The notes beneath the pieces are model-generated. The model worked only from the letters and a program-made list of their open reading frames with translations, did no database searches and was not told where the DNA came from. From assembly GCA_964568925.1 (NCBI GenBank), contig CAZMSJ010000001.1, forward strand, positions 1,115 to 65,114: 64,000 nt of DNA, in the 5' to 3' direction. The stretch comes from an uncultured Gammaproteobacteria bacterium. Its GTDB lineage: Bacteria; Patescibacteriota; Microgenomatia; UBA8517. Shown in pieces: positions 1,731-49,006 of the stretch. Within the stretch, counting starts at the first letter, position 1. Each line of letters starts with the position of its first letter. The position numbers and the translations under genes are program-made.

Positions 1731-1733
1731 ACT

Positions 1734-1760: not shown

Positions 1761-1850
1761 TTCATGTCAAGACCTTCTGTAAGGTTATTTTTGACTTAAA
1801 AACTGAGGTAGAATATAATATAGGTAGGCATTTTTATAAGGAGGATCGCT

Positions 1851-2345: not shown

Positions 2346-2350
2346 CAGTA

Positions 2351-2379
2351 GGGCGGCTTTAATAAGCCGCCTTTTTTTC
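2351..2379 (+). terminator. Rho-independent terminator
   Basis: gggcggctt-taat-aagccgcc stem-loop followed by TTTTTTT. Confidence 0.6.
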
Positions 2380-2921: not shown

Positions 2922-2950
2922 AAACAGGCAGAAAAAGACAGTGAGATTAA

Positions 2951-4942: not shown

Positions 4943-5007
4943 CTCCTCGTTTCCACCCTGTTTTTACGTATCCTTTCTTTGCTATGATGGAGTAGTCGAT
5001 ACTGTCT

Positions 5008-6217: not shown

Positions 6218-6218
6218 T

Positions 6219-6434
6219 ATGCAAAGTACAAAATACATGCCAAAAAGTTTGAAGTTAATTCTTGCGTTAACACTTATTACCACCTTTTCGTGGATTGGAT
6301 TTGATGTATATCGATCGTTTACTCAACTGCCTCCTCCAATTGTCTCAGCAGAAATCTTGGCACCAGTTGACCCAACATTAAATGTGGATATTTTAAATGC
6401 ACTACCAAACAGGGTATATTTAAATAATCAATAA
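6219..6434 (+). CDS. Small membrane protein (71 aa)
   Basis: ORF with a hydrophobic N-terminus LKLILALTLITTFSWIGF. Translationally coupled position after the pilO-like gene. Confidence 0.3.
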   Translation: MQSTKYMPKSLKLILALTLITTFSWIGFDVYRSFTQLPPPIVSAEILAPVDPTLNVDILNALPNRVYLNNQ

Positions 6435-7781
6435 ATGAAGAAATCTAGAATTCCTACAGTCATCGGTGTTTTTACTCTCGTCATAGGCGTTGCCGTGGGT
6501 GTGTTTGCCGTTAATCAAACCCAATCATTTAGACTCGGTGCCTCTCCTGAAACAACTCCACAAGATGTTCAGATCTCAAACATTCAAGATAAGTCTGCAA
6601 CAATTACATGGAAGACAGATAAAGCAGTTGTCGGCAGTATTGTCTGGGATGAAACAGCAAATGTTTCAAAGGCAGCTGCAGACGGAACAAGTTTAAAAAA
6701 TCTTCACTCAGTAAACCTAACCGGGCTTACCCCAGGAAAGAGATATTACTTTAAGATTATTTCTTCAAACGCAACGTACTCAAACAGTGGATCCCCATGG
6801 ACATTTGATACCCAAGCAAAGGTCCCAACAAAGACGCAAGTGTTAACAGGTTCTATCTTAACGGCGACCGGACAACCAGCTGCAAATGCTCAGGTGTTTG
6901 TTTCTTCTGCAAATATGGCACTCTTGTCAGGCACCACAACTGATAGTGGAAACTGGACAGTTACTGCTCCTATTGCATCAGATGCACTCTTAAAGGAAAC
7001 CATTGATATCTTTGTACAAGGTGGAACCGAGGGAATTGCATCAGCTCAGATTAACTTTAAAGATGCACAAAACACTCCTCCAATCACGATGGGGAAGACT
7101 CACGACTTTAGAGGTACTGCAGCAATTAACAACAGTAATCAACCAGAGTCATCTCTCTCACTTCCAGTTACCCAAACAACAAGTAAGCAATCCGGTTTTG
7201 CAGTTGAAGAGACCAAGACTACCAAATCAACAACCGTTGACCTAAAGAGTATTAAAGACAAAGAACAAGTCTTCACAAAGAAGCCTGAGTTTTTTGGAGA
7301 TGGTACCCCAGGTACGTCAATTACCATTACTGTTCACTCTACTGCTGTTGCAACACAAACACTTAAGATTCCATCAAGTGGAAGCTGGAGATGGAGCCCT
7401 TCAACACAACTTGAAGAGGGTGCTCATACAATCACCATTACCTGGAAAGATGCTGCAGGAATTTTAAGAACGTTAACGAGAAACTTCACCGTAAGTGCTG
7501 CTGACAATACATCACTTGCATTTGAATCTACCCCTTCTGGTTCTACTGCTACACCAAAAGCAACTGCAACACCAAAGGCCACGAAGACTCCAACACCAAC
7601 CGTTGAGCCAACATCAACACCATCTGCTACACCAGTGGCAACAAAGACTCCTCGACCAACAGCAACACCGGCATCAACGTCAGCGTTACCTGAAGCTGGA
7701 GTAGCTGAAAACACCTACATACTTCTTGCTGCAGGTTTTGCACTCATTGCTGCATCGTTCATCATTTTTAAGAAGGCCTGA
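6435..7781 (+). CDS. Secreted surface protein with FN3-like domain, Thr/Pro-rich stalk and a C-terminal LPEAG sorting signal
   Basis: Signal/TM at N-term. ATITWKTDKAVVGSIVWDE...GKRYYFKI is an FN3/PAP-N-like motif. C-terminus is ATPKATATPKATKTP... then LPEAG + hydrophobic span + KKA. Confidence 0.5.
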   Translation: MKKSRIPTVIGVFTLVIGVAVGVFAVNQTQSFRLGASPETTPQDVQISNIQDKSATITWKTDKAVVGSIVWDETANVSKAAADGTSLKNLHSVNLTGLTPGKRYYFKIISSNATYSNSGSPWTFDTQAKVPTKTQVLTGSILTATGQPAANAQVFVSSANMALLSGTTTDSGNWTVTAPIASDALLKETIDIFVQGGTEGIASAQINFKDAQNTPPITMGKTHDFRGTAAINNSNQPESSLSLPVTQTTSKQSGFAVEETKTTKSTTVDLKSIKDKEQVFTKKPEFFGDGTPGTSITITVHSTAVATQTLKIPSSGSWRWSPSTQLEEGAHTITITWKDAAGILRTLTRNFTVSAADNTSLAFESTPSGSTATPKATATPKATKTPTPTVEPTSTPSATPVATKTPRPTATPASTSALPEAGVAENTYILLAAGFALIAASFIIFKKA

Positions 7782-7786
7782 CAATC

Positions 7787-8542
7787 ATGGACCAATCTAC
7801 GAACGCGGTATCACCGTTTCCTACAATAAACCCTCCGGCTCCAACAACTACGATCGTTTCTCAAAGTAAACCTGGTGGAGTAAATAAAAAGATGATTGGT
7901 GCCATCATTGGTATTGTTTTATTAGTTATTGGTCTTGTGAGTGGATTGTTTTTAGTAAGTCAAAGACAACAGTTTCAGCAAAAAGCATGGGACTGCAGTA
8001 AGTATCACTTTGTAATGACCAAAGAGGGACAAATTACAGCGGTAAACGACAGTACCAATAGTGAACCACTTCAACAGGCGGACGTTTATATAAACAATGC
8101 AAAGGCGACAACACTTGATGTACCAGCTCTAAACCCTGGACAATCAGCAGTGATTGGACAAGTAACCGTGCCAGTAAGTGGAACATTTAGTTGGGAAGTA
8201 CGAGGACTCGCTGACTGTTCTTCAACCGGAAGTTTCACGGCACAAGAAACAGCAAAGTGCGTTGACATCAAAGCATATGACGACAAGTGGACAGTTTTAT
8301 CTGCAACAGAACTTACAAACTTAAAGGCAGGAAGTGTTGTGAGGTTTGCAGTAACTGGAAGTACATCAACTGGTGCATTTTCAAAAGCTCGATTCAAAAT
8401 AAATGGTGTTGTTGGTACTGAAGTAACAACAAAGAGACCAGCATCAGAAGATTTCTATACTGAATATACCGTTCCAAAAGGAACAACAACATTTACGATT
8501 TCAGCTGAGCTGTTTCACAACACCTTTAATAAGTGGTTTTAA
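7787..8542 (+). CDS. N-terminally anchored secreted protein (251 aa)
   Basis: TM at residues ~35-58 then a beta-rich extracellular domain. Part of the surface-protein gene run. Confidence 0.4.
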   Translation: MDQSTNAVSPFPTINPPAPTTTIVSQSKPGGVNKKMIGAIIGIVLLVIGLVSGLFLVSQRQQFQQKAWDCSKYHFVMTKEGQITAVNDSTNSEPLQQADVYINNAKATTLDVPALNPGQSAVIGQVTVPVSGTFSWEVRGLADCSSTGSFTAQETAKCVDIKAYDDKWTVLSATELTNLKAGSVVRFAVTGSTSTGAFSKARFKINGVVGTEVTTKRPASEDFYTEYTVPKGTTTFTISAELFHNTFNKWF

Positions 8543-9795
8543 TCCCTATGAAAAAATTCATATCAGAAAACAAATTAGCAGTTGGAGGAATTGGTATAAC
8601 AGCAGTTCTCGCCTTTGTTGCAGTCTTTACCGCACTTCGCTTGTACTCTCTTCGTGCTCCTAATGCACCTGAAAGTAATCCAGGCGCAACTGATCTTCAG
8701 TGTCAGAACGGAGACCAAAATCGAGATCAAAACATGTGGCTTATTTGTGAATGTCCAAATGGATGTACACAAAAATGTGACACCTCAGCCGGTGGCGGTG
8801 GCTGTGGTTGGGTATGTGATCAAAATTGTCGACTTGTTCCTCGAGGGACAAACCCACAAGGGCAATGTACTCAAACTGATTATGTTCATGATGGCACCAG
8901 CAATTATTGTGGTGTAGCAAACATTAGCTGTGGCACATCATGCCAAGGAGGCGGTTCTACTCCGGTACCGACCCCAAGGGGGCTTTGTGATAACAGTTGT
9001 ACAACCGATGCTGATTGTGAAGCAACAAGCCCAACAGGTGCTCAATTAACATGTAATACGACTCTCAAGAAATGTGTAAATAAATTATGTCCAAACGATA
9101 CAATTCCTGGCAATAACTGCGACTGTAAAACAGCGGTACAACAATGTGGCCAGCCATGTGGTGGTGGATATCCACTTTGTGGTGCAGGATTCACCTGTGT
9201 CTATACAAAGGGGCCAACCTGTGTTGCTTCAAGTGTGGCGAACCCAACAAGTTATTGTGTGCCACAGCCGCAAGCACCAGGCTATTCATTTGCAAACTGT
9301 GTTTCACGAGACAAACTTAATTCATATCTTGTAAAGGGAACGAAGACTGTCTTTACTCCAGCGGAAGTTCTTGAAGCATGTAGTCCACAAGCGACATCTA
9401 CGCCAACAGCAACACCAACATCGACTCCTGACATTGTTACGATGGCATGTACCGCTCTTACCTTTACCTTAACAACTGCAACAGGAACCCCAACAGCTAC
9501 TGCCACGGCCACAGCAACTGCTACGGCAACCGCCACAGCCACCGCTACTGCGACTGCGACATCTACCGCTACGGCCACAGCAACTGCTACGAGTACCGCG
9601 ACAAGTACTCCTGTGGCAACAAGTACACCGACTGGAACTTCAACGGCAACGCCACGAGTAACAAACTCACCAATTGCAAAGGCAACAGAATCACCAACAC
9701 CATCACTTCCAAATGCAGGCGTTGCGTGGCCTACAATTCTCACTGCTACAGTTGGAATTCTCTTAATGGGGCTTGCGATCTTCCTCGCAATGTAA
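8533..9795 (+). CDS. Cys-rich secreted protein with (TA)n low-complexity stalk and C-terminal LPNAG sorting signal
   Basis: >40 Cys in CxxC/CxC patterns (CECPNGCTQKCD...). Run of TATATATATATATATATATATST. C-terminal LPNAG + TM. Confidence 0.5.
   Translation: MVLIPMKKFISENKLAVGGIGITAVLAFVAVFTALRLYSLRAPNAPESNPGATDLQCQNGDQNRDQNMWLICECPNGCTQKCDTSAGGGGCGWVCDQNCRLVPRGTNPQGQCTQTDYVHDGTSNYCGVANISCGTSCQGGGSTPVPTPRGLCDNSCTTDADCEATSPTGAQLTCNTTLKKCVNKLCPNDTIPGNNCDCKTAVQQCGQPCGGGYPLCGAGFTCVYTKGPTCVASSVANPTSYCVPQPQAPGYSFANCVSRDKLNSYLVKGTKTVFTPAEVLEACSPQATSTPTATPTSTPDIVTMACTALTFTLTTATGTPTATATATATATATATATATATATSTATATATATSTATSTPVATSTPTGTSTATPRVTNSPIAKATESPTPSLPNAGVAWPTILTATVGILLMGLAIFLAM
9493..9612 (+). repeat. 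Imperfect hexanucleotide (GCNACN) tandem repeat encoding the (Thr-Ala)n tract
   Basis: About 20 tandem 6-nt units visible directly (acagctactgccacggccacagcaactgctacggcaacc...). Confidence 0.6.
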
Positions 9796-9913
9796 AAGTC
9801 ACTTTACTTCTTTTTCTTTCGTGAAGGTATCTGCCTTTTCTTCACAGATATTGAGTGTCAAATTACACAGCTAATATTGTTAATCTTTCCTAAATGAAGA
9901 AACTCACTGGTGG

Positions 9914-12370
9914 TTATCTCCAACTTGGAAGCCAGTAATACGATTCGTTTAACCAGAGAGGAACAGGGAGACCAGTTAATCGTGGGAAGAAATACAAGAA
10001 CACAACGCCAGCAATAATTAAGAATGGAAGTATGAGTTTTGGTGAACGAGATAGACAATAGGCAAGACTAATACAAAGGAACGGAACAGCTGGAAAATAA
10101 TGATACAAAAACATAATACGAGGAGAGAATGCCCATGGCATAAACAGACCTGCATAGGACGCAACTACGAGTGCCGCGGACTTACTTTTGTCCTTCAATG
10201 CATACCAGGACGTAAGAAAGATTGACGCCAATCCTCCCCAAAAGATAATCGGATTCCCCATCGCATAAATATTTGAAATAACACCATTATGTTCACCACT
10301 GGTGTAGAGCCAAATTGGTCGACCTAATACTGGCCAACTCCACCACGGAGAACTGAATGGATGAGTTGCAACAAGTCCGGTGTGATACCACCAAATTTGT
10401 TTCTGCATTCCCCAAAAAATATCGAACGTATGTCCCGAGGTAAACATAAAGAGATATGAACCAATGTAGATGGCAACGGGAATAATAAGGAACGAGAGAT
10501 ATGAAATTTTTATTCTTTTTTGTTTCAGAATAAAGGTGACAACAAGGATTGGTAGCAACCACAACGTCGTCCATTTTGCAGAAGCTGCTAAACCTAATGC
10601 GATTGAAGCAAACACAATTTTATTTTTCAAAAATAAAATAATTGTAAGAAGCAGGAAGAAGACGAGATAGATATCATTCATTCCAATACGACTTAAGACT
10701 AGGGCCAAACCATCGAGACTAAAGAGAAATGCAGCAAGTAACGCAACCTTTTCTTTCTTAAATAATTCCTTTGTTAGGGCATAGACCAAATACACACTCC
10801 CCGTTCCAAAAAGTGCAGCAGGCAAACGCCATCCAAAACTTGTTTCCCCTACCAAAACCATCGACATAACCATCGCAAGTTTTGCAAACGGTGGATGGGT
10901 CCATTCATATGCAAACCCTTCAGGACTTTCATTCCACCATTCCCACACCTTTATATTTCCATGCAACATTTGTCGAGCTGTGAAAGCATGGTATACCTCA
11001 TCAAAGTATTCATGTTCAGGAGATACCAGAGCAAATAAACGGGTAGACAACGCCCACACAAGAATCACTACAAGGAGAATTTTTGCCGTCTTGTTTGAAA
11101 TATCTTTCGCAAAAACTTTTGGCTCAGGGCTTGAAAGGAATGCTTTAACGTAGCCTACCAAACCGCCGACACGACTGGCTTTGATAAAGCCAATAAAAGA
11201 CTTTGTTTTTTCTTCTTGCAAGACAATCACAAGAGACATGATATTAAGCAAAATAAAAAAGAAAATGAGAAGCGGTGAATAGCTCTCTTTAAAATTCTCT
11301 GTAATCCAGATAAAGGCATAGTTCATATTTGCGATGTATACAAAAGACAACAGCACATAGGAGATTAAAAGCTCTGTGGAAATTGCAGCCAGTGGAGCAA
11401 GTGCCACTATTGCTGGAAGTAAATGTCTCTCATGCATACGAGTGAAGAATAAAAAGTTTGCGAGAAACAGGAGGACAAGCATTTTTATTGATGACAATTG
11501 TCGATCTCCCTTTTGTTTACGAAATTGTATGTAGCCAACAAGAGACACAAGACCAAACAGCAAGTAGCCCAAGTATTTATTGGTAAACAGGCTTGCTCCT
11601 TCTGGTTTCCAAAATCCAAAGAGCCCCCAAAAATTAAATGCGTTTACACTTCCATATGGATATTGGTTTAGGGTTACACCAAGTCGTTCAAAGATAAACG
11701 TGACGATGTTTTGTCCATTTGAAAATGGGAAAAACAAAAGGAGGAGAACCCCCGTTGCAACGAGGACAAAAACAATCTTTTGTTTAAAACTTTTTTGTAA
11801 AAAGAGGGGAAGAAGAACCAAACCAGTTAACGCCGCTTGTGGTTTTATTGCGGAACCAATTGAAAGAAAGATTGCTGAGAGAATTACACTTGATTCAAAA
11901 CTCACGACACTTGCTAAGGAAAACAGAACGGTCAAAATATCAACTTGTCCCCACAGAGTAGAGTTAGCAATCGTTGCTGGGTTAAACCATACAAGAACAG
12001 CACCAAACAATGCTTTGTCTGGATACTTTTTCTTCAAGATATAGTAGGTCGTTAAACCAGCAAATATGTCTGCCGTAATTGCTGGCAATTTATATAAAAC
12101 TACCGTTGGTATTCCGATTGACTCGATGCCAGACAGAAATGACAAGACATATAAATATCCAGGCAAGTAATCACTCCAACTGGTGTAAAACATTGAAAAG
12201 CCATTCGTGGTAAGTGAATGTGCCCATGCAATAAACGTATTTTGATCTAGTAGCAGGGTCCCAAACTGTGCAAGTATAATGCGAAGCATGAAGGCACTAA
12301 TGGCGAGCAAAAAGACCCGGAGGATAGTAGGTCCGCTTGTTGTTTTTTTCTTCTTTTTCATCATATTCAA
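9914..12370 (-). CDS. Large polytopic membrane glycosyltransferase, GT39/GT83 (PMT/ArnT)-like, apparently two fused membrane modules
   Basis: 818 aa with >20 predicted TM segments. YxxxA/DE-rich loops typical of lipid-linked sugar transferases. 5' end overlaps the divergent gene 12279..13478, so the exact start is uncertain. Confidence 0.45.
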   Translation of the reverse strand: MNMMKKKKKTTSGPTILRVFLLAISAFMLRIILAQFGTLLLDQNTFIAWAHSLTTNGFSMFYTSWSDYLPGYLYVLSFLSGIESIGIPTVVLYKLPAITADIFAGLTTYYILKKKYPDKALFGAVLVWFNPATIANSTLWGQVDILTVLFSLASVVSFESSVILSAIFLSIGSAIKPQAALTGLVLLPLFLQKSFKQKIVFVLVATGVLLLLFFPFSNGQNIVTFIFERLGVTLNQYPYGSVNAFNFWGLFGFWKPEGASLFTNKYLGYLLFGLVSLVGYIQFRKQKGDRQLSSIKMLVLLFLANFLFFTRMHERHLLPAIVALAPLAAISTELLISYVLLSFVYIANMNYAFIWITENFKESYSPLLIFFFILLNIMSLVIVLQEEKTKSFIGFIKASRVGGLVGYVKAFLSSPEPKVFAKDISNKTAKILLVVILVWALSTRLFALVSPEHEYFDEVYHAFTARQMLHGNIKVWEWWNESPEGFAYEWTHPPFAKLAMVMSMVLVGETSFGWRLPAALFGTGSVYLVYALTKELFKKEKVALLAAFLFSLDGLALVLSRIGMNDIYLVFFLLLTIILFLKNKIVFASIALGLAASAKWTTLWLLPILVVTFILKQKRIKISYLSFLIIPVAIYIGSYLFMFTSGHTFDIFWGMQKQIWWYHTGLVATHPFSSPWWSWPVLGRPIWLYTSGEHNGVISNIYAMGNPIIFWGGLASIFLTSWYALKDKSKSAALVVASYAGLFMPWAFSPRIMFLYHYFPAVPFLCISLAYCLSRSPKLILPFLIIAGVVFLYFFPRLTGLPVPLWLNESYYWLPSWR

Positions 12371-40110: not shown

Positions 40111-40485
40111 CTAGCCACCCCAACTAAGAAACAAGAATATTAAACCTGAGATTCCGAATTTAACCGGATCAACAATCCCAAGTGTTGGGCTAAATGCCCC
40201 AATCATGATGTGAATCAACGCACCATGAATAATGATTCCCAAACCAACAGCCAAGGTGACAAATACAACAATGCATCCACAGCCGAGGCCCGCTTCTGTG
40301 CGTGCAATAACGGCAACAATGAGCAAAACTACGCCAACGATGAAGATGATCACACCAACGGTGGATAATCCATCATAAATGCTGGCAACTTTATTCAGAA
40401 AGTCATACACGCCAGCGGCACTGCTCATGTTTGTGCCAGTACCAGCAACTGATATAAACGCAACAATCAGGATTATCAGAGCCAT
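40111..40485 (-). CDS. Small polytopic membrane protein (124 aa), own promoter and terminator
   Basis: Three to four TM segments. GC higher than the genome background. Confidence 0.4.
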   Translation of the reverse strand: MALIILIVAFISVAGTGTNMSSAAGVYDFLNKVASIYDGLSTVGVIIFIVGVVLLIVAVIARTEAGLGCGCIVVFVTLAVGLGIIIHGALIHIMIGAFSPTLGIVDPVKFGISGLIFLFLSWGG

Positions 40486-40522
40486 TTTTACCCTCTTCCT
40501 TAGGAAAAATTTGCTGCAGAGT

Positions 40523-40551
40523 ATAATAACACATTATTGTTATGGGGTCAA
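40523..40551 (-). promoter_or_regulatory. Putative promoter TTGACC-17-TATTAT (minus strand)
   Basis: Reverse complement reads ttgaccccataacaataatgtgttattat, ~35 nt upstream of the 124-aa gene. Confidence 0.4.
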
Positions 40552-40642
40552 ATAAGATGAAGTAATATCAAGGACATAGAACTCACCATTGTGGTAAGCG
40601 CGACTGCTCTTCACGCCCACCACAATAGTGAGAAAAATAGAA

Positions 40643-40667
40643 AGAGGCGGATGTTTAGTCCGCCTCT
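40643..40667 (-). terminator. Terminator of island module A
   Basis: agaggcgga-tgtttag-tccgcctct. The minus strand has a T-rich tail after it. Confidence 0.5.
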
Positions 40668-40675
40668 ACGTTAGT

Positions 40676-41251
40676 CTAGAGCGTTGCCTGTAGCACACCC
40701 ATAAACTTTTCAATCAATACCTTTGCCTCCGACGCAAACATCATCGTTGTGTTTGCATCACAGACAAACCCGTTTCCGTCACTGTCATAAGACCATGCCC
40801 ATTCAGGCACAGGCATATTGACAATCCGTTCCGGCAATTCTACTTCGATATTGTTACTGCCCAGTCCTTTAAAAAACCGGGGTTCAATTCTTCCTGATGA
40901 AGAAACAGCTCCTGAAAGGGACGGCTGGTAGACTAGCTTACCGTCTACAATTTTCTCGTACCAAATGACCTTGGCGGGTTTGTCAAAAATCTGACCTGCG
41001 TAGCGAGGAAAAGGTTTGCGCTCTTCCATAAACAGGCCGCGAGAAACGACTATTTCTTCAGTCTCTGGCCCCCATTTGGATAAAACCGCATATAATAGTC
41101 CACTTCGCATCTGGAAATGCGGGTGTTTACCAACATCTGTAATGAAGACCAAATCGGCGGCTTTCGCAGCACGCTGAACCTCTTCATATGTCAACAACTG
41201 TTCTGCAGGACGGTTCTCTTTTATGAAATCATTCAATTGTTTGCTGTACAT
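40676..41251 (-). CDS. Island protein, member of a local paralog family (191 aa)
   Basis: The C-terminal ~105 aa aligns with the 157-aa protein at 43878..44351 (LPERIVNMPVPEWAWSYDSDGNGFVCDANTTMMFASEAKVLIEKF vs FPEPVVTLPIPRWVKVWVHGDYGACDAGAESIQMFKSEAERLATEF). Confidence 0.45.
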   Translation of the reverse strand: MYSKQLNDFIKENRPAEQLLTYEEVQRAAKAADLVFITDVGKHPHFQMRSGLLYAVLSKWGPETEEIVVSRGLFMEERKPFPRYAGQIFDKPAKVIWYEKIVDGKLVYQPSLSGAVSSSGRIEPRFFKGLGSNNIEVELPERIVNMPVPEWAWSYDSDGNGFVCDANTTMMFASEAKVLIEKFMGVLQATL

Positions 41252-41382
41252 CTTGCTCTCCTGTTAGTTGGGTTAACTATTAATAAAATATAGATTACTT
41301 TTGATACTTAAAATATTTTTTTTAAATACGAACGGAAAATAAATATATGGTGACGGAAGTAGTTCCGCCACCATTTTTTTGA

Positions 41383-41874
41383 TTAGCTCGGAAGCCAAAA
41401 ACCTTCGCGACGAGCTTTCCGAACAAACGAAATAGCTAAGAACACATCGAGTGAGCGGCTGCTATCCACCCACTCACCTTTAAAGAGGTTCTCTAGTTTG
41501 AGGGTGAAATCGTCTCCCCCCTTATCAGATAGCGTCAACCGATATTCGGTCACGCCAATTGATTGGGGGAAACCCGCAACTTTGAAACTTACAGACTCAC
41601 CGGCCTGCAGTTTCATCGCAGGAATTACGGTGACAAGTGCTTCATCAAACGAAGCAAAGGCTTCAACTTTCCACCAATTGGTACTAATGGCTAGAAGATT
41701 CCCTTCCTCGTCCTCCAAGGCACGATACACGATAAAGTCAGGTGACGGACAGACGTTAAGTTCTTTTGCCTCCTCCAAAGCATCATTTAGCGAATTTGCT
41801 TTCAAATTCACTCGAACCTCATTGTCACCTAGTTCGATCCAGTTCCCAAAGATAACTCCAACATAGGACGGCAT
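41383..41874 (-). CDS. Island protein (163 aa), N-terminus resembles N-terminus of the 157-aa paralog
   Basis: MPSYVGVIFGNW vs MPKPAFVSLGNL, and ...KVAGFPQ...KGG vs VVAGFQVKENKGG. Weak similarity. RBS aaggagaagaatc identical to that of gene 42384..42623. Confidence 0.4.
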   Translation of the reverse strand: MPSYVGVIFGNWIELGDNEVRVNLKANSLNDALEEAKELNVCPSPDFIVYRALEDEEGNLLAISTNWWKVEAFASFDEALVTVIPAMKLQAGESVSFKVAGFPQSIGVTEYRLTLSDKGGDDFTLKLENLFKGEWVDSSRSLDVFLAISFVRKARREGFWLPS

Positions 41875-42010
41875 GATTCTTCTCCTTATTAATCAAAGCT
41901 CATGTAGCTTATAAATTGAAATGCCTCACACAAAAGATATGTTTATATCTTCTGGGTGAGGCACTTTTACTCTCACAACATTCAAACAAGATTTAAATGC
42001 TGAATTGAGT

Positions 42011-42029
42011 CCCCCACATGAAGTGGGGG
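42011..42029 (-). terminator. Conserved intra-operon hairpin (copy A)
   Basis: cccccac-atgaa-gtggggg with conserved flanks gaattgagt...tatttt.agacg shared with the copy at 44466. Confidence 0.45.
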
Positions 42030-42052
42030 CTATTTTAGACGAAGAGATCAGT

Positions 42053-42352
42053 CTACTTCCAACCTAAATCCCAGCCATACCCATTTGCTGAGTATCTAGG
42101 TTTGCGGACTGTGCCGTCCGAAAGGACAAAAATCGGAGCGTTTAAAGTAGAGTCCCACTCTACTTTCATTACTTCAAGCTCCGCAGGCTTCGTTTGCGCA
42201 CAAACCACCATTTGAACAGACTTGATTGCGGCCCAATCCTCCGCAGTTGGACCTGCGGTCGGATGCTGGTCAGCCGAAAGTGTTTCGGCAGCTTTAAAGG
42301 CAAATTCCAAAACCTTTAAAAGCGCATTATTATCAACAGTTATCTGGCCCAT
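42053..42352 (-). CDS. Island small protein (99 aa)
   Basis: ORF between the leader gene and the conserved hairpin. No family recognised. Confidence 0.4.
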   Translation of the reverse strand: MGQITVDNNALLKVLEFAFKAAETLSADQHPTAGPTAEDWAAIKSVQMVVCAQTKPAELEVMKVEWDSTLNAPIFVLSDGTVRKPRYSANGYGWDLGWK

Positions 42353-42383
42353 GATATCTCCTTATCCTATATGTAAAATTAAA

Positions 42384-42623
42384 CTAATTATCCAGCCATT
42401 CAAAAAATCTCATAGCGGGGTAAATGGCAAGAATCCCCCCAAAAAGTCCGATAAAATTGAGATTCATCGGTAAAAACATTACCGCAAATCCAATACCCAA
42501 CAAAATTGGGGATCCGATCGCGATAATGGAAATAAGAAATGCACGGGCAATCTCCCCTTCAGGGTGCCCAGTAGGTACAACTGGGAAAAACTTTTTCCAA
42601 ATTTGGCGAATTTTAATACTCAT
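42384..42623 (-). CDS. Island small membrane protein (79 aa), first gene after conserved leader A
   Basis: Two TM segments. Start preceded by aaggagaagaatc and the 14-bp palindrome. Confidence 0.4.
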   Translation of the reverse strand: MSIKIRQIWKKFFPVVPTGHPEGEIARAFLISIIAIGSPILLGIGFAVMFLPMNLNFIGLFGGILAIYPAMRFFEWLDN

Positions 42624-42643
42624 GATTCTTCTCCTTGTGAGTT

Positions 42644-42657
42644 GGGCTCATGTGCCC
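42644..42657 (-). promoter_or_regulatory. Conserved leader/operator motif A: near-palindrome GGGCACATGAGCCC ~10 nt upstream of RBS
   Basis: 12/14 self-complementary. The identical 14-mer is at 44908-44921 in the same position relative to another operon start. Confidence 0.45.
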
Positions 42658-42723
42658 ATATGGATTTAGATTTCTTTTGATATTTAAAAGATTTTTAAAT
42701 ATGAAAGAAAAGTAAAAATTGTA

Positions 42724-42745
42724 GGGGAAGGTTGGCTCCTTCCCC
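42724..42745 (-). terminator. Terminator after the 305-aa gene
   Basis: ggggaagg-ttggct-ccttcccc. On the minus strand it is followed by acaattttt. Confidence 0.5.
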
Positions 42746-42758
42746 CAAAAACAATGAA

Positions 42759-43676
42759 CTACTTAATCAGGTGTTTCGAAACAATCTCGACAACCTGCTC
42801 GATTTTCAGGGTGCTATTTATACCCTGAGGGCTGCCACCAATCGTCGGCGAACCACCCCAACCGGCTTCCAATGCCGAAAGCTCAGTAAAAGCTGCCTTT
42901 AGGTCCAGGTACCCAGCTTCATACTGGCTTACCGTGAACTTTGAGTGCTTAGGCCCACCTTGGAATGAAAACTCACGATTCAAGGCAACGACGACCGGCG
43001 CTAACGAATATCCCACCATCGTCGCTGCGCGGTGAGTCGAAACGACTACCGCAATCTTTCCTTCAGTGCGATGAGTGATCGCACCACTTTCAAGAGCGGC
43101 GATCATGTCGCTGCGCTCTTTATCAACCTGTGCGCGGTATGCGCAAGGTTCCTCGCCAGTCAAGAGCCATTTTTCCATCCAGGCGACACGATCTGCAATT
43201 GCGACTTTGAAGTCTGCAACCGCTGCGGCAATCGCCGCCAGTTCGCGTGTATCTGACGCGCTGGCGTTCTTCTCAGGCCACGGGTTTTCCGTAGTAGGCA
43301 GTGGCTTCACGCCTGCCCAATGGCCACGAGCAAACTTATCGGCAGCTGCTACTCGGAGAATCCGAGCGACGGCTGCGGCAGAAAACTGCCCATTGCGGGA
43401 ACGAATTTCCAGAAGGGCCATTGCTCCAATAGAATCCAGGTCGGCACGAACTGTGACCAGGGTCGATCCCTCAACCGGCAACTCTACTGTCAGGGCTGCT
43501 TCAATTGCAGCCTGATCTGCGTTTTGTCCGCTGTGCTGGGGGTCAAGGTTCCCCAAACAGCACTGCGCAGCCAAGGCAGGAATCGTTACCTCAACACCAA
43601 AGGTGTTGGGACCAACTAGCAAGGCATTTGCCTCAGTACCAACAGGACGGGGGTCAAGGATTCCAAATTTAAACAT
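42759..43676 (-). CDS. GC-rich uncharacterised protein (305 aa), Ala/Gly-rich, no TM
   Basis: Intact ORF. GC ~55% in sampled 60-mers against ~35% in the flanks. Motifs CCLGNLDPQH, VRADLDSIGAMALL, GWGGSP. No confident family assignment. Confidence 0.5.
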   Translation of the reverse strand: MFKFGILDPRPVGTEANALLVGPNTFGVEVTIPALAAQCCLGNLDPQHSGQNADQAAIEAALTVELPVEGSTLVTVRADLDSIGAMALLEIRSRNGQFSAAAVARILRVAAADKFARGHWAGVKPLPTTENPWPEKNASASDTRELAAIAAAVADFKVAIADRVAWMEKWLLTGEEPCAYRAQVDKERSDMIAALESGAITHRTEGKIAVVVSTHRAATMVGYSLAPVVVALNREFSFQGGPKHSKFTVSQYEAGYLDLKAAFTELSALEAGWGGSPTIGGSPQGINSTLKIEQVVEIVSKHLIK

Positions 43677-43877
43677 GATTTCTCCACTGCTCTTGGGGTT
43701 GAACTTTTGTCAACACATCCTTTTGGCAGCGCGGATAGGCGCCATCGATTGCGCCCTCCAAGCTGCCATCAACAGAGAAAGAACGGTTTGGAGAGAAAAA
43801 TGTTTCTATCAATCTTGAATTTCTTCAAAACTGATTTGAAACAGGGGAAGATAATGAACCTTCCCCTAATTTGTCTA

Positions 43878-44351
43878 CTAAATGAGTTTTTTAAGCTCAT
43901 TCGTGAACTCAGTTGCGAGACGCTCGGCCTCTGACTTAAACATTTGGATAGATTCGGCACCTGCATCGCAGGCACCGTAATCCCCGTGTACCCAAACTTT
44001 CACCCAACGAGGTATCGGTAGGGTTACGACAGGTTCTGGGAATGAAACTTCCACCGCAGGGTACCCTGCCGCTTCCAAGACTCCAGGGATAATGCCTGGG
44101 GCGTTATGGTAAAACCCCAATGTAGGGGTATAACGAACGACGCCCAACTGAGCATCGATTTCTGCATTCCACGAAAAAGTAATACCCGAGTCAACCTGCC
44201 AAGTCTCACCCCAAGTGGCGGTGATAGACAACCCTCCTTTATTTTCTTTAACCTGGAACCCCGCCACTACAGCAGCAATTTTCAAATTACCAAGAGAGAC
44301 AAATGCAGGCTTCGGCATGTTGTTCGAGACGAAAGATGATAGTGTAGACAT
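43878..44351 (-). CDS. Island protein, paralog family member (157 aa)
   Basis: See 40676..41251. The true start may be MPKP at 44318. Confidence 0.45.
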   Translation of the reverse strand: MSTLSSFVSNNMPKPAFVSLGNLKIAAVVAGFQVKENKGGLSITATWGETWQVDSGITFSWNAEIDAQLGVVRYTPTLGFYHNAPGIIPGVLEAAGYPAVEVSFPEPVVTLPIPRWVKVWVHGDYGACDAGAESIQMFKSEAERLATEFTNELKKLI

Positions 44352-44465
44352 TTAAGACCCCTTATTACTTGATTAAATACAAAATTTCAAAACAGATTGT
44401 GTTTACAATATTTATATTTAATGCTCTCACAAACTTGAAACTCGCATTTCAAATTTGAATTGAGT

Positions 44466-44484
44466 CCCCCACACAAGGTGGGGG
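44466..44484 (-). terminator. Conserved intra-operon hairpin (copy B)
   Basis: cccccac-acaag-gtggggg then atttttct on the plus strand. Flanks are conserved with copy A. Confidence 0.45.
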
Positions 44485-44518
44485 ATTTTTCTAGACGGAG
44501 CCTCAGATATAAGCCCTT

Positions 44519-44887
44519 TTATTGAGAAATATCAGGAGGAAGTGGATATCCTCCGTGCTCCTCCATTTTGCTATCAGGAGACGCCGCAATAGCAGCGTCA
44601 ATTCGTTCACGCGCATTTAAGCTGAGGGAGAGCTCACGCAGGTTCATCTTCTTGATGTATCTGCGGTCAACGAGAATATCATTGCGAAGAGCATCATCTG
44701 CCCAAACAATGATACCCGGCTCATCACTTGGCGTGCTTCCTTCAAGCATTGCATACACCAAAATTAACGCTGGCCGGCGCCCACCGACGCACTTTTTCTC
44801 AAGATCAAAAACTCGAACACCGCTTTCAGAGATCTGAACCTTGTAACGGCCAACCACAACTACCTGCTCGTTTGAATTCTGTGCCAT
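44519..44887 (-). CDS. Island small protein (122 aa), first gene after conserved leader B
   Basis: ORF. Start preceded by aaggagaaaaatc and the 14-bp palindrome. Confidence 0.4.
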   Translation of the reverse strand: MAQNSNEQVVVVGRYKVQISESGVRVFDLEKKCVGGRRPALILVYAMLEGSTPSDEPGIIVWADDALRNDILVDRRYIKKMNLRELSLSLNARERIDAAIAASPDSKMEEHGGYPLPPDISQ

Positions 44888-44907
44888 GATTTTTCTCCTT
44901 AATGAGT

Positions 44908-44921
44908 GGGCTCATGTGCCC
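44908..44921 (-). promoter_or_regulatory. Conserved leader/operator motif B (GGGCACATGAGCCC)
   Basis: Identical to the 14-mer at 42644. A putative -10 TATACT lies 7 nt upstream on the minus strand. Confidence 0.45.
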
Positions 44922-44932
44922 TAAATTTAGTA

Positions 44933-44974
44933 TATCTACCTAATAAACCACTAACATGGGCTAGTAGGTAGATA
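44933..44974. repeat. 10-bp perfect inverted repeat tatctaccta/taggtagata with 22-nt spacer overlapping the module-B promoter region
   Basis: Read directly from the sequence. Confidence 0.4.
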
Positions 44975-45359
44975 CACTGGACCACATAACTGAGCTTGAA
45001 ATAGGTATTTTGAGGCTAATAATGAAGTGAAACACACATATTGTGCTTAAAAACGAGCTTAGTTAGCCTCATTTTTGAGTTCAAGAGCAGTTATGTGGCT
45101 CAAAACCTCGCTTGTAGGCGGGTTTTTTATAATGAGCTTTTTATGTGAATGAGCAGAATCCACTTACCTCTTCTCTGACTTTCGATAACTTATAATACAC
45201 CCCAAACCTATATTTGTCAAGTGGCAATGACAAATAATACTAAACCCTATCTCACAAACTACCCATTATTTGTACTCAAAAACAGGGGTGGATATCTACA
45301 TTCTTTCGCGTATGTCAAAACGTGTTGACAATTATTTTTAAACAGACTATTCTATATAA

Positions 45360-46148
45360 ATGATTGATGAAACGCTCAAAAAGATTGGATTATCAAACGA
45401 AGAAACTGAAGTGTATCTCTCTCTTCTAAACTCCGGGACCGCCAATGCCTCACAAATTGCTAAGCAGACGTCTGTAAAAAGAACAAATGTCTACAATATT
45501 TGCGATAGTCTTATTACGAAAGGACTTGTAACAAAGAAGGCTCTTGCTCGAGGCATGGCATTTACTCCACTATCTCCAGATCACCTTTCGCCACTAGCAA
45601 TTCAACTTGAACAACGAATACAAAATGCAATGACAAGCTTGGAAAATATTCTACCTTCACTTAAAGAGCAATATAAATTAATTGATGAAAGACCAATCAT
45701 TACTGTCTATGAAGGAATTGAAGGTTTAAAGAAAATTTACAAAAACATATTGGAGGAAAAAGATGATATTCTTCTTCTCCGCTCATACTATGATGATAAA
45801 AGAATAGATCTTGATGCAATTGTAATGGCGCAAATTAAAAATCAAGTGAAAAGCGGTATACACGTTCGAACAATAACTCCATTGGAGAATGCAACAAAGG
45901 AAGTTTTTTTTAAGCACGATACCCCTAATTTAGTAAAACGACATATCATTCATTCAACACAATTTGAACTTCCCTCACAAATTATTGTCTATAAAAATAA
46001 AGTAGCAATGATTTCACTGAAAAAAGATATTGTAGCTACTCTCATTGATAACAAAGACATTAGTGACACATTTCGAATGCTCTTTGATTTTATGTGGGAG
46101 AAAACAGAGAAAGAACATGAAGAGATTGTGGCTGAATGGAAAGATTAA
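45360..46148 (+). CDS. TrmB-family transcriptional regulator
   Basis: N-terminal wHTH LGLSNEETEVYLSLLNSGTANASQIAKQTSVKRTNVYNICDSLITKGLV is the TrmB signature. C-terminal effector domain. Confidence 0.6.
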   Translation: MIDETLKKIGLSNEETEVYLSLLNSGTANASQIAKQTSVKRTNVYNICDSLITKGLVTKKALARGMAFTPLSPDHLSPLAIQLEQRIQNAMTSLENILPSLKEQYKLIDERPIITVYEGIEGLKKIYKNILEEKDDILLLRSYYDDKRIDLDAIVMAQIKNQVKSGIHVRTITPLENATKEVFFKHDTPNLVKRHIIHSTQFELPSQIIVYKNKVAMISLKKDIVATLIDNKDISDTFRMLFDFMWEKTEKEHEEIVAEWKD

Positions 46149-48205: not shown

Positions 48206-49006
48206 CTACACTGAAATAACCCCATTCTTCTCTAGGCGCTTCATAACGACATCACCCCAATCAAATGGATGGAAATAAGCAAAATGGAAAGAAAAGACCT
48301 CTCGTGTCACTTTGTGATTCATATAGATAACTTGAAAGTAATATGCCAATACATTCAGTGGTATCAATAAAAACAAAAGACTCTGAGATACAAATGCTTT
48401 TGCTCTTCTAATTGTAATGGCGTTTGGCCAGTACGATAAAACCCATTTATTAGAAGATAGCCACCTCTCAAATGTATTTTTTTTATTGATGAGTGGAATT
48501 ACTTGGGCAACCTCGTGGGCGGTATAGGCATTACGTGGCATACAAGGTAAAGCAAGAGACTTTTCATCTAGCCAAACATTCAAACAAATCCGATCTTTTT
48601 CATCTTTCATAGAGGCTCTCCTCATCTTTACGCCAGAAGCAAGTAACAATAGAAGTGAAATGGCTCGTGTAATCCACAGAGAATGGGCACTCGTTATGAT
48701 CATGAAATCAATATCACTGGTTTCTTTTGCATTCTCCATTGCAAGGGAACCAGTAACACCAACAAACAAAATTGTAGGAATGTGTGAGAGAATTTTTGCA
48801 GCTTTTCGTGCAATCAAGAGCTTCTGCTTTTGAATTGCATCAAGCTTGTTTTGTTCACTCTTACTTAAGGGGGAAAGGTGTGGAGTTACGCTACCAGTTC
48901 TAAGTGTCAACTTGTCTCCGGCAGTCCACCGATGCAAGTTTTTCTTCGACAAATGAAAAGAAAAAAATGAATGATAGATAATTGAGATGCTGTCAGAAGA
49001 TTTCAC
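48206..49006 (-). CDS. Pol-beta-superfamily nucleotidyltransferase
   Basis: GVTGSLAMENAKETSDIDFMII matches the hG[GS]x9-13Dh[DE]h minimal NTase motif. Confidence 0.55.
   Translation of the reverse strand: MKSSDSISIIYHSFFSFHLSKKNLHRWTAGDKLTLRTGSVTPHLSPLSKSEQNKLDAIQKQKLLIARKAAKILSHIPTILFVGVTGSLAMENAKETSDIDFMIITSAHSLWITRAISLLLLLASGVKMRRASMKDEKDRICLNVWLDEKSLALPCMPRNAYTAHEVAQVIPLINKKNTFERWLSSNKWVLSYWPNAITIRRAKAFVSQSLLFLLIPLNVLAYYFQVIYMNHKVTREVFSFHFAYFHPFDWGDVVMKRLEKNGVISV

Follow-up and report, generated by a model that had tools for sequence, protein, structure and literature searches.

A conserved hairpin and Shine-Dalgarno leader ahead of unrelated genes in a hypervariable array of an uncultured Woesebacteria genome

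The 14-mer GGGCACATGAGCCC stands twice in the 64-kb window (the whole stretch of DNA that was analysed, 64,000 nucleotides), and its sequence context indicates that this repeat is no coincidence but belongs to one conserved, selected leader common to several transcription units, which makes common expression control of these units plausible. In our preferred reading, to which we give about an even chance, the 14-mer would be the stem-loop core of a portable RNA leader acting as a 5′ stabiliser or insulator and carrying a Shine-Dalgarno (SD) sequence.

The original prediction had described an identical near-palindrome with 12/14 self-complementarity, and both points are borne out: exact matches lie on the − strand at 42644–42657 (copy A) and 44908–44921 (copy B), and both sites also score on the + strand with 2 mismatches each. 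With up to 2 mismatches allowed, the window contains these two sites and no more, against a chance expectation of 0.15 matches, and the observed count was reached in 0 of 100 shuffles; GGGC-N6-GCCC likewise has no further site in the window. Copies scattered inside coding regions, which would have spoken against a regulatory role, were looked for and none was found. Both copies are preceded by CTAAAT and A/T-rich −10-like hexamers and followed by ACTCA and then AAGGAGAA[G/A]AATCATG, all as predicted, except that the ribosome-binding site (RBS) block begins exactly 7 nt past the motif and not about 10. The ATG of copy A opens a 79-aa ORF (42384–42623) and that of copy B a 122-aa ORF (44519–44887). 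The RBS block has three occurrences in the window, the third (41872–41887) behind a diverged motif termed copy C, and in every copy the SD AAGGAGAA-N4/5-ATG sits 7–8 nt past the hairpin. The leader features are as follows.

44908–44921, − strand: leader hairpin of copy B, GGGC-ACATGA-GCCC, before the 122-aa ORF (exact match)
44885–44907, − strand: copy B spacer ACTCATT, SD AAGGAGAA, AAATC and ATG
42644–42657, − strand: leader hairpin of copy A, before the 79-aa/99-aa gene pair (exact match)
42621–42643, − strand: copy A spacer AACTCAC, SD AAGGAGAA, GAATC and ATG
41896–41910, − strand: diverged leader hairpin of copy C, AAGCT-ACATG-AGCTT (AAGCTACATGAGCTT), before the 163-aa ORF
41872–41895, − strand: copy C spacer TGATTAAT and AAGGAGAAGAATCATG, with the same RBS block as copy A
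41265–41279, − strand: different small hairpin TAGTT-AACCC-AACTA (TAGTTAACCCAACTA) at the equivalent position in the leader of the 191-aa gene

Strain comparisons reveal strong conservation of these elements. The copy B hairpin is unchanged across strain variants L001–L008 and L013, and its SNPs are confined to the spacer (T to A in L008 and L013), with none in the motif or SD. Relative to L013, copy A differs at 0/14 and copy C at 0/15 motif positions; copy A has one strain SNP in the spacer (C to G) and none in the RBS block. In total, 29 motif nt and 32 RBS-block nt are identical between the window and L013, whereas array intergenic regions overall differ by 3.3%. A further exact copy precedes an extra 162-aa gene in L013 and L015. 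In L018/L019, another species whose TrmB is 59% identical, GGGCACTTGAGCCC stands at the equal 7-nt offset from the SD before the first array gene, in L018 within an intergenic region of ~700 nt that is otherwise unalignable with the window; the motif is thus kept upstream of related modules, the absence of which had been named as an argument against selection. The GGGC motif is missing from L017, L020, L022 and L025, and other lineages carry their own, different repeated leaders.

The window has at least three motif-type leaders, all within a 5-kb array, with none in the other 59 kb; sister strains have four. This array of an uncultured Woesebacteria (CPR) bacterium occupies a groES-[array]-trmB slot conserved in ~8 lineages, and contains cassette-end hairpins.

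40111–44887, − strand: hypervariable small-gene array, 122, 157, 305, 79, 99, 163, 191 and 124 aa (g122 and so on below)
44466–44484, − strand: cassette-end hairpin T1, CCCCCAC-N5-GTGGGGG then ACTCAATTCA, where L013 homology resumes
42011–42029, − strand: cassette-end hairpin T2, then ACTCAATTCA, behind the 99-aa ORF; paralog of T1

Array proteins gave no matches in Pfam, PHROG or PADLOC, and no HTH/RHH domains were found among them; g122 and g191 are orphans, and g305 has a DHH/DHHA1-like fold. The motif leader precedes six mutually unrelated ORFs in the window and its relatives: pairwise comparison of those next to the motif found no similarity, and the first gene behind it is different in every genome. 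One such gene, L018_129, has a homolog in L017 without the motif. The sole paralogs among the array ORFs are g157 and g191 (E = 8e-9), and module duplication as the cause of the repeat was rejected on this ground, the motif-led ORFs being unrelated. A post-hoc regular expression for a common protein segment, φ-VD-xxx-L-xx-φ-L, matched exactly the motif-led proteins, but was mostly unsupported by leave-one-out HMMs, which backed just the pairing of p126 with g99 (E ~3e-4 to 6e-4), while g122 was marginal and p162 and g163 were unrecovered. An origin from a phage, plasmid or defence island was rejected as well, with no PHROG, PADLOC, phage- or plasmid-database matches and no viral-contig match.

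Homology between the window and L013 ends at 44883, just past ATGGC, and resumes at 44472 in the T1 hairpin; in place of g122, L013 has two other ORFs, an unrelated one of 126 aa and then, past a T hairpin and a motif leader, the one of 162 aa. As shown by this alignment, the ORF swap begins right after the leader ATG and ends at CCCCCAC-N-GTGGGGG-ACTCAATTCA. The strains compared are 93–96% identical, with ORF content replaced between the leader ATG and the cassette-end hairpin. The array ORF bodies differ by 8–16% between strains and the linkers by ~3%, giving a mosaic divergence profile with peaks of 14–30% inside ORFs and 0–5% at each linker. Array ORFs have a dS of 0.22–0.66 against a baseline of 0.12–0.16; with their dN/dS at 0.12–0.28, positive selection was rejected and the high divergence taken to reflect deeper alleles. 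The linkers repeated within the array comprise terminators, promoter-like regions and RBS blocks. Neither membership of a hypervariable array nor the position of the leader at an ORF-replacement boundary between strains had been part of the original prediction.

Transcription of the array was analysed through its promoters, terminators and neighbouring hairpins, together with the divergent regulator gene.

45360–46148, + strand: TrmB-family regulator gene (Pfam PF01978, 7e-15), divergent from the array
45325–45353, + strand: promoter of the trmB-like gene
45313–45331, palindromic: another TTGTCA-N7-TTGACA site, overlapping the −35 of the promoter that belongs to the trmB-like gene
45215–45233, palindromic: TTGTCA-N7-TTGACA over the P1 −35 (perfect site), candidate TrmB-like operator
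45192–45220, − strand: P1, strong sigma70-type promoter TTGACA-17-TATTAT facing the array (11/12 match)
44929–44978, − strand: large hairpin with 22-nt arms directly upstream of copy B (z = −4.1)
42671–42711, − strand: promoter-like region with an A/T-rich inverted repeat, ahead of copy A
41919–41966, − strand: large hairpin with 22-nt arms upstream of copy C (z = −6.5)

The −35 region of P1 is conserved across species. In a promoter scan the only sites to score were P1 and the promoters of g124 and groES, with no sigma70-type site at the internal linkers, where A/T-rich regions and −10-like hexamers are present. Among 8 leaders, these hexamers end 4–7 nt ahead of the stem in 4, overlap the stem in 2 and are absent in 2; they are weak or stem-overlapping in 4/8. 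Given the missing sigma70-type internal promoters and the weak or overlapping −10 boxes, the leader hairpin may not be 5′-terminal, or may be only partly transcribed. The hairpin at 44929–44978, which is not conserved in L018, has two positions that are G-U on the − strand and A-C on the + strand, and such G-U pairs between P1 and copy B indicate − strand transcription. Canonical U-tract terminators lie 3′ of g305 and g163, so that downstream cassettes need promoters of their own. The cassette-end hairpins have no U-tracts; T1 and T2 are 80% identical over 44446–44490 and 41991–42035, and L013 has two more, one with a compensatory CCCCCAT/ATGGGGG change. The leader hairpin itself, with 4 bp and no U-tract, is unlikely to be a terminator. 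The two modules or operons originally proposed give way to a larger set of motif-led genes, most of which, judging from these signals, form transcription units of their own, each equipped with terminator-like hairpins.

A short 5′ hairpin had been offered originally as the alternative to an operator, and the evidence favours it over a DNA operator on the strength of compensatory stem changes in copy C, an SD distance that is fixed while the −10 distance varies, and non-homologous hairpins exchanged at the same position in homologous leaders. Copy B is predicted to fold into a 4-bp GC stem with a 6-nt loop (−7.6 kcal/mol) and copy A into a hairpin of −8.5 kcal/mol, the GGGC copies spanning −7.3 to −8.9 kcal/mol; for copy C a 5-bp stem of −3.3 kcal/mol is predicted. 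Copy C keeps the loop/core ACATGAGC and alters the stem on both sides (GG..CC to AA..TT, GGGC/GCCC to AAGCT/AGCTT), the covariation evidence consisting essentially of this one diverged paralog and one bulge-compensated ortholog, with few independent changes. The motif-to-SD distance is constant at 7–8 nt, whereas that from the motif to the −10-like hexamer ranges between −3 and +7 nt, and the copies share no homology upstream of the motif. The 42671–42711 region has homologs before the 191-aa gene and in two L018 leaders, and leaders sharing it carry four different hairpins at one position: GGGC..GCCC, TAGTT..AACTA (before the 191-aa gene), TGTTGGA..TCCAACA and, in L018_95, a 7-bp stem with a bulge. 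In the L018 ortholog of the 191-aa gene, TGTTGGA-ATA-TCCAACA replaces TAGTT-AACCC-AACTA. Across −50 to −11, array leaders are more structured than non-array ones (median −5.35 vs −3.75 kcal/mol; ≤ −5 in 60% vs 25%; P = 0.008), an enrichment of modest size among leaders that are not independent of each other. The loop of the leader hairpin is conserved as strongly as the stem.

These features suggest how a leader of ~37–45 nt could work, in the order GC-clamped hairpin, ACTCA, 7–8-nt spacer, consensus SD AAGGAGAA, 4–5 nt and ATG. The element belongs to the conserved non-coding linkers of a cassette array in the groEL-groES-[array]-trmB slot, fixed in a Woesebacteria lineage, and would act in the mRNA. 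If cassette transcription begins at the −10-like box a few nt upstream, the GC hairpin would lie at or near the mRNA 5′ end, as we propose, and together with a perfect SD 7–8 nt downstream it could serve as a 5′ stabiliser and structural insulator, protecting the message against 5′-end-dependent decay and keeping the RBS accessible regardless of the attached ORF or the upstream sequence. As a by-product, the conserved linkers would provide homology for ORF exchange by recombination, as PeSL (promoter-early stem-loop) cassettes do in T4-type phages, and the conserved loop ACAUGA would leave room for a specific RNA-binding factor. Several observations run against this mechanism: a pure stability hairpin does not need a conserved loop, the stem has only 4 bp, a near-palindrome at +1 to +14 looks like a repressor operator too, and a block duplicated from one ancestor, without selection, could also account for the identical orientation and spacing.

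The rival account at the DNA level, in which a dimeric non-TrmB repressor binds half-sites GGGCAC and GAGCCC around a 2-bp centre and co-represses the cassettes at the transcription start, appears unlikely. It would explain the 12/14 dyad symmetry, the presence of three to four identical copies in one genome, a centre as conserved as the arms, and the motif's position a few nt 3′ of −10-like hexamers in several leaders; the single change in the other species also falls at the dyad centre, where many repressors tolerate variation. However, copy C alters both half-sites symmetrically with 1 extra nt, so that binding of the same protein would be lost while the hairpin is kept, and in L018 the orthologous copy-A leader has 3–4 mismatches, yet retains a stem; both half-sites are altered in L018_95 as well. 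The motif also keeps a fixed spacing to the SD block and is not tied to a particular promoter sequence. No DNA-binding protein is recognisable in the array, autoregulation by the first motif-led gene is excluded since that gene differs per genome, and the only recognisable regulator, the TrmB-like protein, also occurs in motif-less lineages. The original prediction had named this neighbour as a candidate for binding the 14-mer and co-regulating the modules; the idea of common control stays plausible through the shared leader, but TrmB as its agent is extremely improbable. Its gene is close to and divergent from the array, the trmB-array linkage is kept in all lineages, and orthologs with 48–66% identity keep the same neighbourhood. 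Against this, perfect TTGTCA-N7-TTGACA sites, of which the window has exactly two, overlap the −35 of both divergent promoters, and a version of this palindrome stands beside trmB in 9/9 lineages, including L017, L020, L022, L025 and L027 that lack the GGGC motif. The TrmB sites that have been characterised, for instance TACT-N-AGTA and TATCAC-N5-GTGATA, are A/T-rich dyads, which resemble the TTGTCA palindrome and not the GC-rich 14-mer. The TrmB-like regulator more plausibly binds TTGTCA-N7-TTGACA at the array promoter.

Passive homology, by which the motif would have no regulatory role and would descend from recent duplication or gene conversion, serving at most as a recombination anchor, strikes us as rather improbable. 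Linkers are indeed repeated within the array, ORF replacement is bounded by them, and other lineages carry different repeated leaders of their own; yet motif and SD are conserved while the 7-nt spacer varies among paralogs and strains, the motif survives in another species amid an unalignable intergenic region, and copy C retains base pairing through double changes. Very doubtful, too, is a hairpin read by a specific factor, either for nut/boxB-like antitermination of P1 transcripts or as an endoribonuclease processing or 5′-end-defining site. Such a factor would fit a loop, ACAUGA, that matches the stem in conservation, the ACTCA found after either hairpin type, the position of copy B ~265 nt downstream of strong P1 behind hairpins, and the absence of U-tracts from the cassette-end hairpins; however, no N-like protein, boxA-like element or RNase was identified, U-tract terminators follow g305 and g163, and the loop differs by one base in L018 and by at least three in L018_95.

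Other readings were considered and set aside. The motif had no Rfam match, the best nearby being a weak full-length hit to Purine (RF00167) at 44924–45023 with 25 bits against a gathering score of 37; a purine riboswitch was rejected, with the riboswitch's P1 and P2 mismatched, U22 replaced, a better fold for the hairpin with 22-nt arms, and absence from the orthologous L018 leader. A start-codon sequestration switch, in which loop CAUGA pairs with UCAUG (the minimum-free-energy fold for copies B and C), is unlikely: CATG is self-complementary and would pair in this way almost by default, and the L018 loop, CUUGA, leaves the stem intact but no longer allows this pairing. By eye, a putative + strand RNA ending at the 45107–45122 terminator could form an 8-bp bulged duplex with the motif, but this sRNA pairing is not conserved in L018 and was taken as chance. 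Wider searches with ACATGAGC-N7-12-AGGAGAANAATCATG in GTDB representative genomes, which do not include the source genome, returned 4 matches, all unrelated; GGGCACATGAGCCC-N5-9-AAGGAG gave 1 chance match inside a high-GC CDS in JGI metagenomes and 0 matches in IMG/VR. A leader covariance model was dropped, since copy C is aligned out of register by MAFFT and a stem of 4 bp contributes little information.

The genomes of CPR bacteria are tiny, with almost no characterised regulation and many orphan genes. The leader, whose function is inferred from sequence, would represent a compact, selected, non-coding standard expression module before otherwise unrelated genes, and offers itself as a candidate 5′ UTR/RBS part with which to express genes in CPR or related systems. 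It lies in a hypervariable slot, syntenic across species, in which ORFs are exchanged or replaced and linkers persist; the adjacent regulator has a conserved candidate operator distinct from the leader.

Among known systems, the aprE, ermC and cryIIIA leaders show that long mRNA can be stabilised by a hairpin or a strong SD located upstream, at its 5′ end or close to it (PMC3997798). The array leader resembles these stabilisers (aprE, ermC and cryIIIA STAB-SD in B. subtilis, ompA/papA in E. coli; PMC3997798) in having a short, stable hairpin, putatively close to the 5′ end, followed by a consensus SD; they are portable and stabilise heterologous ORFs fused behind them, and by analogy the array leader, placed before unrelated ORFs, may do likewise. 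It differs in its conserved loop, which stabilisers do not need. The upstream homology box of Borrelia burgdorferi erp genes likewise places a conserved promoter, operator and leader before highly diverse allelic coding sequences that are co-expressed and diversified by recombination (PMC10016077). There the conserved region runs into the lipoprotein leader peptide, on cp32 prophages with the regulators BpaB, BpuR and EbfC, whereas conservation in the array ends at the ATG. Integrons share head-to-tail small, mostly orphan ORFs in one orientation, hairpins conserved in structure and variable in sequence, and strain-variable content; however, no integrase was found among the neighbouring ORFs or called genes, the array hairpins lack R″/L″-L′/R′ organisation and GTTRRRY/RYYYAAC cores, each array cassette carries a leader and RBS at its 5′ end, and exchange looks homology-based. 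The boxB of lambda nut resembles the array hairpin in size and shape, with a 4–5-bp G/C stem and a conserved 5–6-nt loop. A place near the start of transcripts that must cross several terminators would be another common feature, but the array hairpin comes without boxA or N-like protein, in several copies and at a fixed spot beside the SD.

A close parallel in layout is offered by PeSLs, the mobile regulatory cassettes found in T4-type phages (Arbiol et al. 2010, PMC2839356; Comeau et al. 2014, PMC4122927), which combine an A/T-rich region, a promoter, a G/C-tract stem-loop (in one subclass just past the −10), SD and ATG before ORFans, and bound indels between close relatives. Recombination between PeSL modules gives rise to mini-circles. 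Unlike PeSLs, the array lies in a cellular CPR chromosome, in a slot conserved across species and with no phage genes by PHROG matches; its internal linkers have no recognisable sigma70 −35/−10 consensus pair, its small hairpin is probably too short for a terminator and has no U-tract, the termination-like hairpins being separate, and its leaders share no sequence similarity with PeSLs. In both, short modules are repeated between genes, with an A/T-rich region, a −10 box (in the array a −10-like hexamer), a G/C stem-loop, and an SD and start at the 3′ edge; both stand directly ahead of ORFans in a hyperplastic region and bound insertions, deletions and replacements between close relatives, and by analogy each array module may supply expression signals to whichever ORF adjoins it. 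Tentatively, and with less confidence than in the leader itself, the leader hairpin and the cassette-end hairpin could be seen as the two ends of PeSL-like mobile regulatory cassettes, making groES-[array]-trmB a recombinase-free shuffling locus where unrelated ORFs are swapped by homologous recombination and the whole locus is switched by the TrmB-like regulator at P1. If the linkers do act like phage PeSLs, mobile regulatory cassettes would extend from T4-type phages to a cellular chromosome and would provide a concrete mechanism for the trial and swap of orphan genes in streamlined episymbiont genomes.

In a motif scan of the 64-kb window, the 14-mer GGGCACATGAGCCC, a GGGC-N6-GCCC near-palindrome, occurs exactly on the minus strand at 42644–42657 (copy A) and 44908–44921 (copy B), bearing out the original prediction of an identical near-palindrome ahead of both RBSs. 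These are the only sites at up to two mismatches, against a chance expectation of 0.15, a count that no shuffle reached. Both copies match themselves on the opposite strand with two mismatches, giving a 12/14 dyad. Allowing three mismatches added just two unrelated sites, and GGGC-N6-GCCC did not recur elsewhere in the window. Directly 3′ of both copies lies ACTCA, and AAGGAGAA[G/A]AATCATG begins 7 nt past the motif, closer than the ~10 nt predicted, opening the 79-aa ORF (g79, 42384–42623) and the 122-aa ORF (g122, 44519–44887). The 16-nt RBS block is present three times in the window, the third (41872–41887) serving the 163-aa ORF (g163) and preceded by a diverged copy C, AAGCTACATGAGCTT (41896–41910). 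Copy C retains the core ACATGAGC, and its stem is altered on both sides, from GGGC/GCCC to AAGCT/AGCTT, so the predicted hairpin is preserved. A large hairpin with 19–22-nt arms lies upstream of each motif copy (z = −3.3 to −6.5), and the leader of the 191-aa gene (g191) has an A/T-rich upstream part homologous to that of the copy-A leader.

Elements of the array and its upstream region (window coordinates)
41265–41279: small hairpin TAGTT-AACCC-AACTA in the g191 leader, in the same place as the motif but different in sequence
42011–42029 and 44466–44484: CCCCCAC-N5-GTGGGGG-ACTCAATTCA hairpins, after the 99-aa (g99) and 122-aa ORFs, respectively
42759–43676, minus strand: 305-aa gene (g305), with locally raised G+C (52% vs ~41%)
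43677–43770: GGCGC/GCGCC leader before g305
45192–45220: P1, a sigma70-type promoter toward the array, 11/12 consensus match
45215–45233: perfect TTGTCA-N7-TTGACA palindrome overlapping the −35 of P1
45313–45331: perfect TTGTCA-N7-TTGACA palindrome overlapping the −35 of the trmB promoter

All eight genes of the island (40111–44887) are on the minus strand, and none matched Pfam, PHROG or PADLOC. Among 5.8 billion proteins, g122 and g191 each form one cluster; the source annotation is Candidatus Woesebacteria. The 157-aa gene (g157) and g191 are paralogs. Only g305 has a deep family (696 homologs), with neither a Pfam nor an NCBIfam match. Its AlphaFold model (pLDDT 95.9) matches DHH/DHHA1 phosphoesterases (pApA/pGpG phosphodiesterases, GdpP, RecJ and NrN), and it may represent a so far uncharacterised family of phosphodiesterases acting on oligonucleotides or second messengers. 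Loci of about eight lineages were gathered via orthologs of trmB, the divergent TrmB-family gene. The order groEL–groES–[array of small orphan genes]–trmB–large ORF–NTase–SBP is kept in every locus that extends far enough and the array content differs, indicating that the island is a hypervariable slot maintained across species rather than a one-off insertion. Nearby, a 266-aa protein (48206–49006, minus strand) weakly matches the candidate defence families PDC-S09 and PDC-M05A in PADLOC (E ~5e-4), and its orthologs weakly match NTP_transf_2/Polbeta in Pfam.

The window is collinear with three strain contigs, L013, L014 and L015. Of these, L013 aligns at 95.8% identity over its positions 1–3746 (window 48628–44883) and at 92.6% over 4816–10612 (window 44472–38669), with unrelated sequence in between: g122 in the window; in L013, a 126-aa ORF (p126) and then, behind a cassette-end hairpin and one more exact motif leader, a 162-aa ORF (p162). 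The 5′ breakpoint falls directly 3′ of the leader ATGGC and the 3′ breakpoint at the CCCCCAC/GTGGGGG hairpin. The public call for p162 (L013 4272–4787) is 171 aa, starting at an ATG within the loop of the hairpin; initiation downstream of the consensus SD yields 162 aa, matching the L015 call, and the longer version is an annotation artefact due to the motif. Within the collinear part, coding regions (g157, 15.3%; g305, 16.2%; g99, 14.7%; g79, 9.6%; g163, 7.7%) differ far more than the non-coding linkers between them (1.7–6.1%; overall 32/956, 3.3%), and no differences fall in the motifs or RBS blocks, of which this part has two each. A 100-nt divergence profile peaks at 14–30% within each ORF and falls to 0–5% at every linker, with control intergenic regions at 1.3–5.7%. 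Synonymous divergence is 0.22–0.66 in these diverged ORFs versus 0.12–0.16 in trmB, g683, groEL and g191. With a dN/dS of 0.12–0.28, this excess is due to deeper-diverged alleles, brought in by ORF-wise recombination or replacement, rather than to positive selection. The comparison presents the linkers as a constant scaffold and the ORFs as exchangeable parts. The C-terminus of p126 (L013 3742–4122) and the N-terminus of g99 (42053–42352) have a helical segment of ~45 aa in common (IIVDEEQLRQLLSFAEYAR... vs ITVDNNALLKVLEFAFKAA...; leave-one-out HMM E ~3e-4 to 6e-4), possibly a module common to otherwise unrelated cassette proteins.

The two cassette-end hairpins of the window are 80% identical over 45 nt; L013 carries two (~4141–4160 and ~4802–4823), loops range from N5 to N8 over all copies, and one copy shows a compensatory CCCCCAT/ATGGGGG change. 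They are followed 3′ by (A)CTCAATTCA, and a U-tract is absent on the gene strand; T-runs lie on the opposite strand in both window copies. The ACTCA pentamer is found 3′ of cassette-end and leader hairpins alike.

L018/L019 represent another species, with a TrmB of 59% identity. Their first large array gene has GGGCACTTGAGCCC-TCTCATA-GAGGAGAAATATCATG in front of it, with the stem whole, one loop base changed, spacing equal, and CTCA and SD retained; the rest of the ~700-nt intergenic region is unalignable except for a block near P1. The 129-aa product behind this leader (L018_129) is unrelated to g122 and p126. It shares 44% identity with the first gene in L017, which has a leader without the motif, so the motif is a property of the leader and not of a gene family. 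Six ORFs behind it (g122, p126, p162, g79, g163 and L018_129) have no detectable pairwise similarity, with the caveat of the ~45-aa segment that p126 has in common with g99. The L018 ortholog of the copy-A leader, before a g99 homolog, has diverged to GGGCCTATGTGCCA, predicted to fold as a bulged 7-bp stem (−6.2 kcal/mol). A second leader type, the GC hairpin GGCGC-AATCGATG-GCGCC followed by CGCGCTGCCAA (CTGCCAA type), recurs in L018 (2572–2660) before an unrelated 171-aa ORF, with one compensatory change relative to the window (GGCAC/GTGCC); CTGCCAA-type leaders were also found in L022 and L025. A third, CAATCAATTTTRCTCTCAAAATAAYTTGAGGGTAATGAGATTAGAACATTAAAGGAGAA (CTCTCAAAATAAYTTGAGGG...), has two copies each in L020 (~983–1060, ~1656–1740) and L025 (~1861–1940, ~2625–2700), preceding mutually dissimilar ORFs. 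With other lineages carrying their own repeated leaders, re-use of a few leader types emerges as a general property of these arrays. GTDB representatives (source genome absent), JGI metagenomes and IMG/VR yielded no further related motif copies, and no Rfam family matched.

The TrmB-family regulator had been proposed as a candidate for binding the 14-mer. This found no support: the only two perfect TTGTCA-N7-TTGACA sites in the window overlap the −35 elements of the two divergent promoters, and a version of the P1 palindrome, TTGTCAAG-N5-WWTDACA, lies beside trmB in 9/9 lineages, GGGC-less ones included. This palindrome is therefore the likely candidate operator of the TrmB-like regulator, and the 14-mer is most improbable as its site. 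Downstream of P1 (~45080–45122, partner arm 44982–45000), an invariant 17-mer CCCGCCTACAAGCGAGG and GAGCCACAYAACTGCTCTTGAA are kept across three species (also L013, L018/L019 and L026), the rest of the intergenic region being unalignable. On the plus strand the CCCGCCTACAAGCGAGG element folds into a hairpin that resembles a terminator, containing two G-U pairs and followed through by a T-run; the long hairpin enclosing it shows T-A to C-G covariation and one G-U workable on the minus strand only. Rfam gave no match to this region, which is possibly an unannotated leader RNA, an antisense RNA pair or a tiny plus-strand ORF (MWL[KRI][TA]SLVGG...). A weak full-length purine riboswitch match (RF00167; 44924–45023, minus strand; 25 bits vs gathering score 37) was rejected as spurious, being better explained by the 22-nt-arm hairpin and unconserved in the orthologous L018 leader.

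Whether the motif works as RNA or DNA was weighed from its pattern of change. Copy C keeps its base pairing by double changes and the L018_95 leader by a bulge, and homologous leaders place four different hairpins at one position, which counts for an RNA element. The motif–SD distance is fixed at 7–8 nt, that to −10-like hexamers spans −3 to +7 nt, and sequences upstream of the copies are mutually unrelated. Immediately ahead of the SD, array leaders show stronger structure than non-array ones (median −5.35 vs −3.75 kcal/mol; 60% vs 25% at ≤ −5 kcal/mol, P = 0.008, the leaders being non-independent). A decent −10-like hexamer, in 4/8 leaders, ends 4–7 nt ahead of the stem, so the hairpin would be 5′-terminal, with a strong SD nearby. 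Such an arrangement is the classical 5′ stabiliser architecture (near-5′ hairpin and strong SD) of the aprE, ermC and cryIIIA leaders (PMC3997798). Against an RNA leader stand the stem of only 4 bp, the lack of a sigma70-type promoter in internal linkers by promoter scan, and a loop conserved as strongly as the stem. This last feature, like a dyad near +1, would suit a DNA operator bound by a repressor other than the TrmB-like protein, which we consider unlikely; preserved pairing and the fixed SD distance favour the short 5′ hairpin, the other possibility originally raised, and we give an RNA-leader mechanism an even chance.

Our functional statements on the motif all derive from sequence. 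The motif is real and under selection, and forms one visible piece of a larger feature, the conserved linkers for expression within a cassette array that is hypervariable and recombines. Lambda boxB is presumably a partial analogue of the leader hairpin. Integron arrays are another partial analogue, with neither an integrase nor an attC signature found here, as are the erp loci of Borrelia with their 'upstream homology box' (PMC10016077). In literature searches, no account of such a system in CPR bacteria turned up. By analogy, the closest counterpart comes from T4-type phages, whose PeSL cassettes are repeated modules of an A/T-rich promoter, a G/C stem-loop and SD/ATG that sit upstream of ORFans in hyperplastic regions, delimit the indels that distinguish close relatives and bring about the shuffling of modules (PMC2839356, PMC4122927). 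The linkers have the same logic and most of the anatomy. Unlike PeSLs, they occupy a syntenic slot on a cellular chromosome, have no recognisable sigma70 −35/−10 pair and keep the small leader hairpin separate from the terminator-like hairpins. Given these three differences, we liken the linkers to PeSLs, as which they would work, rather than classing them as members.
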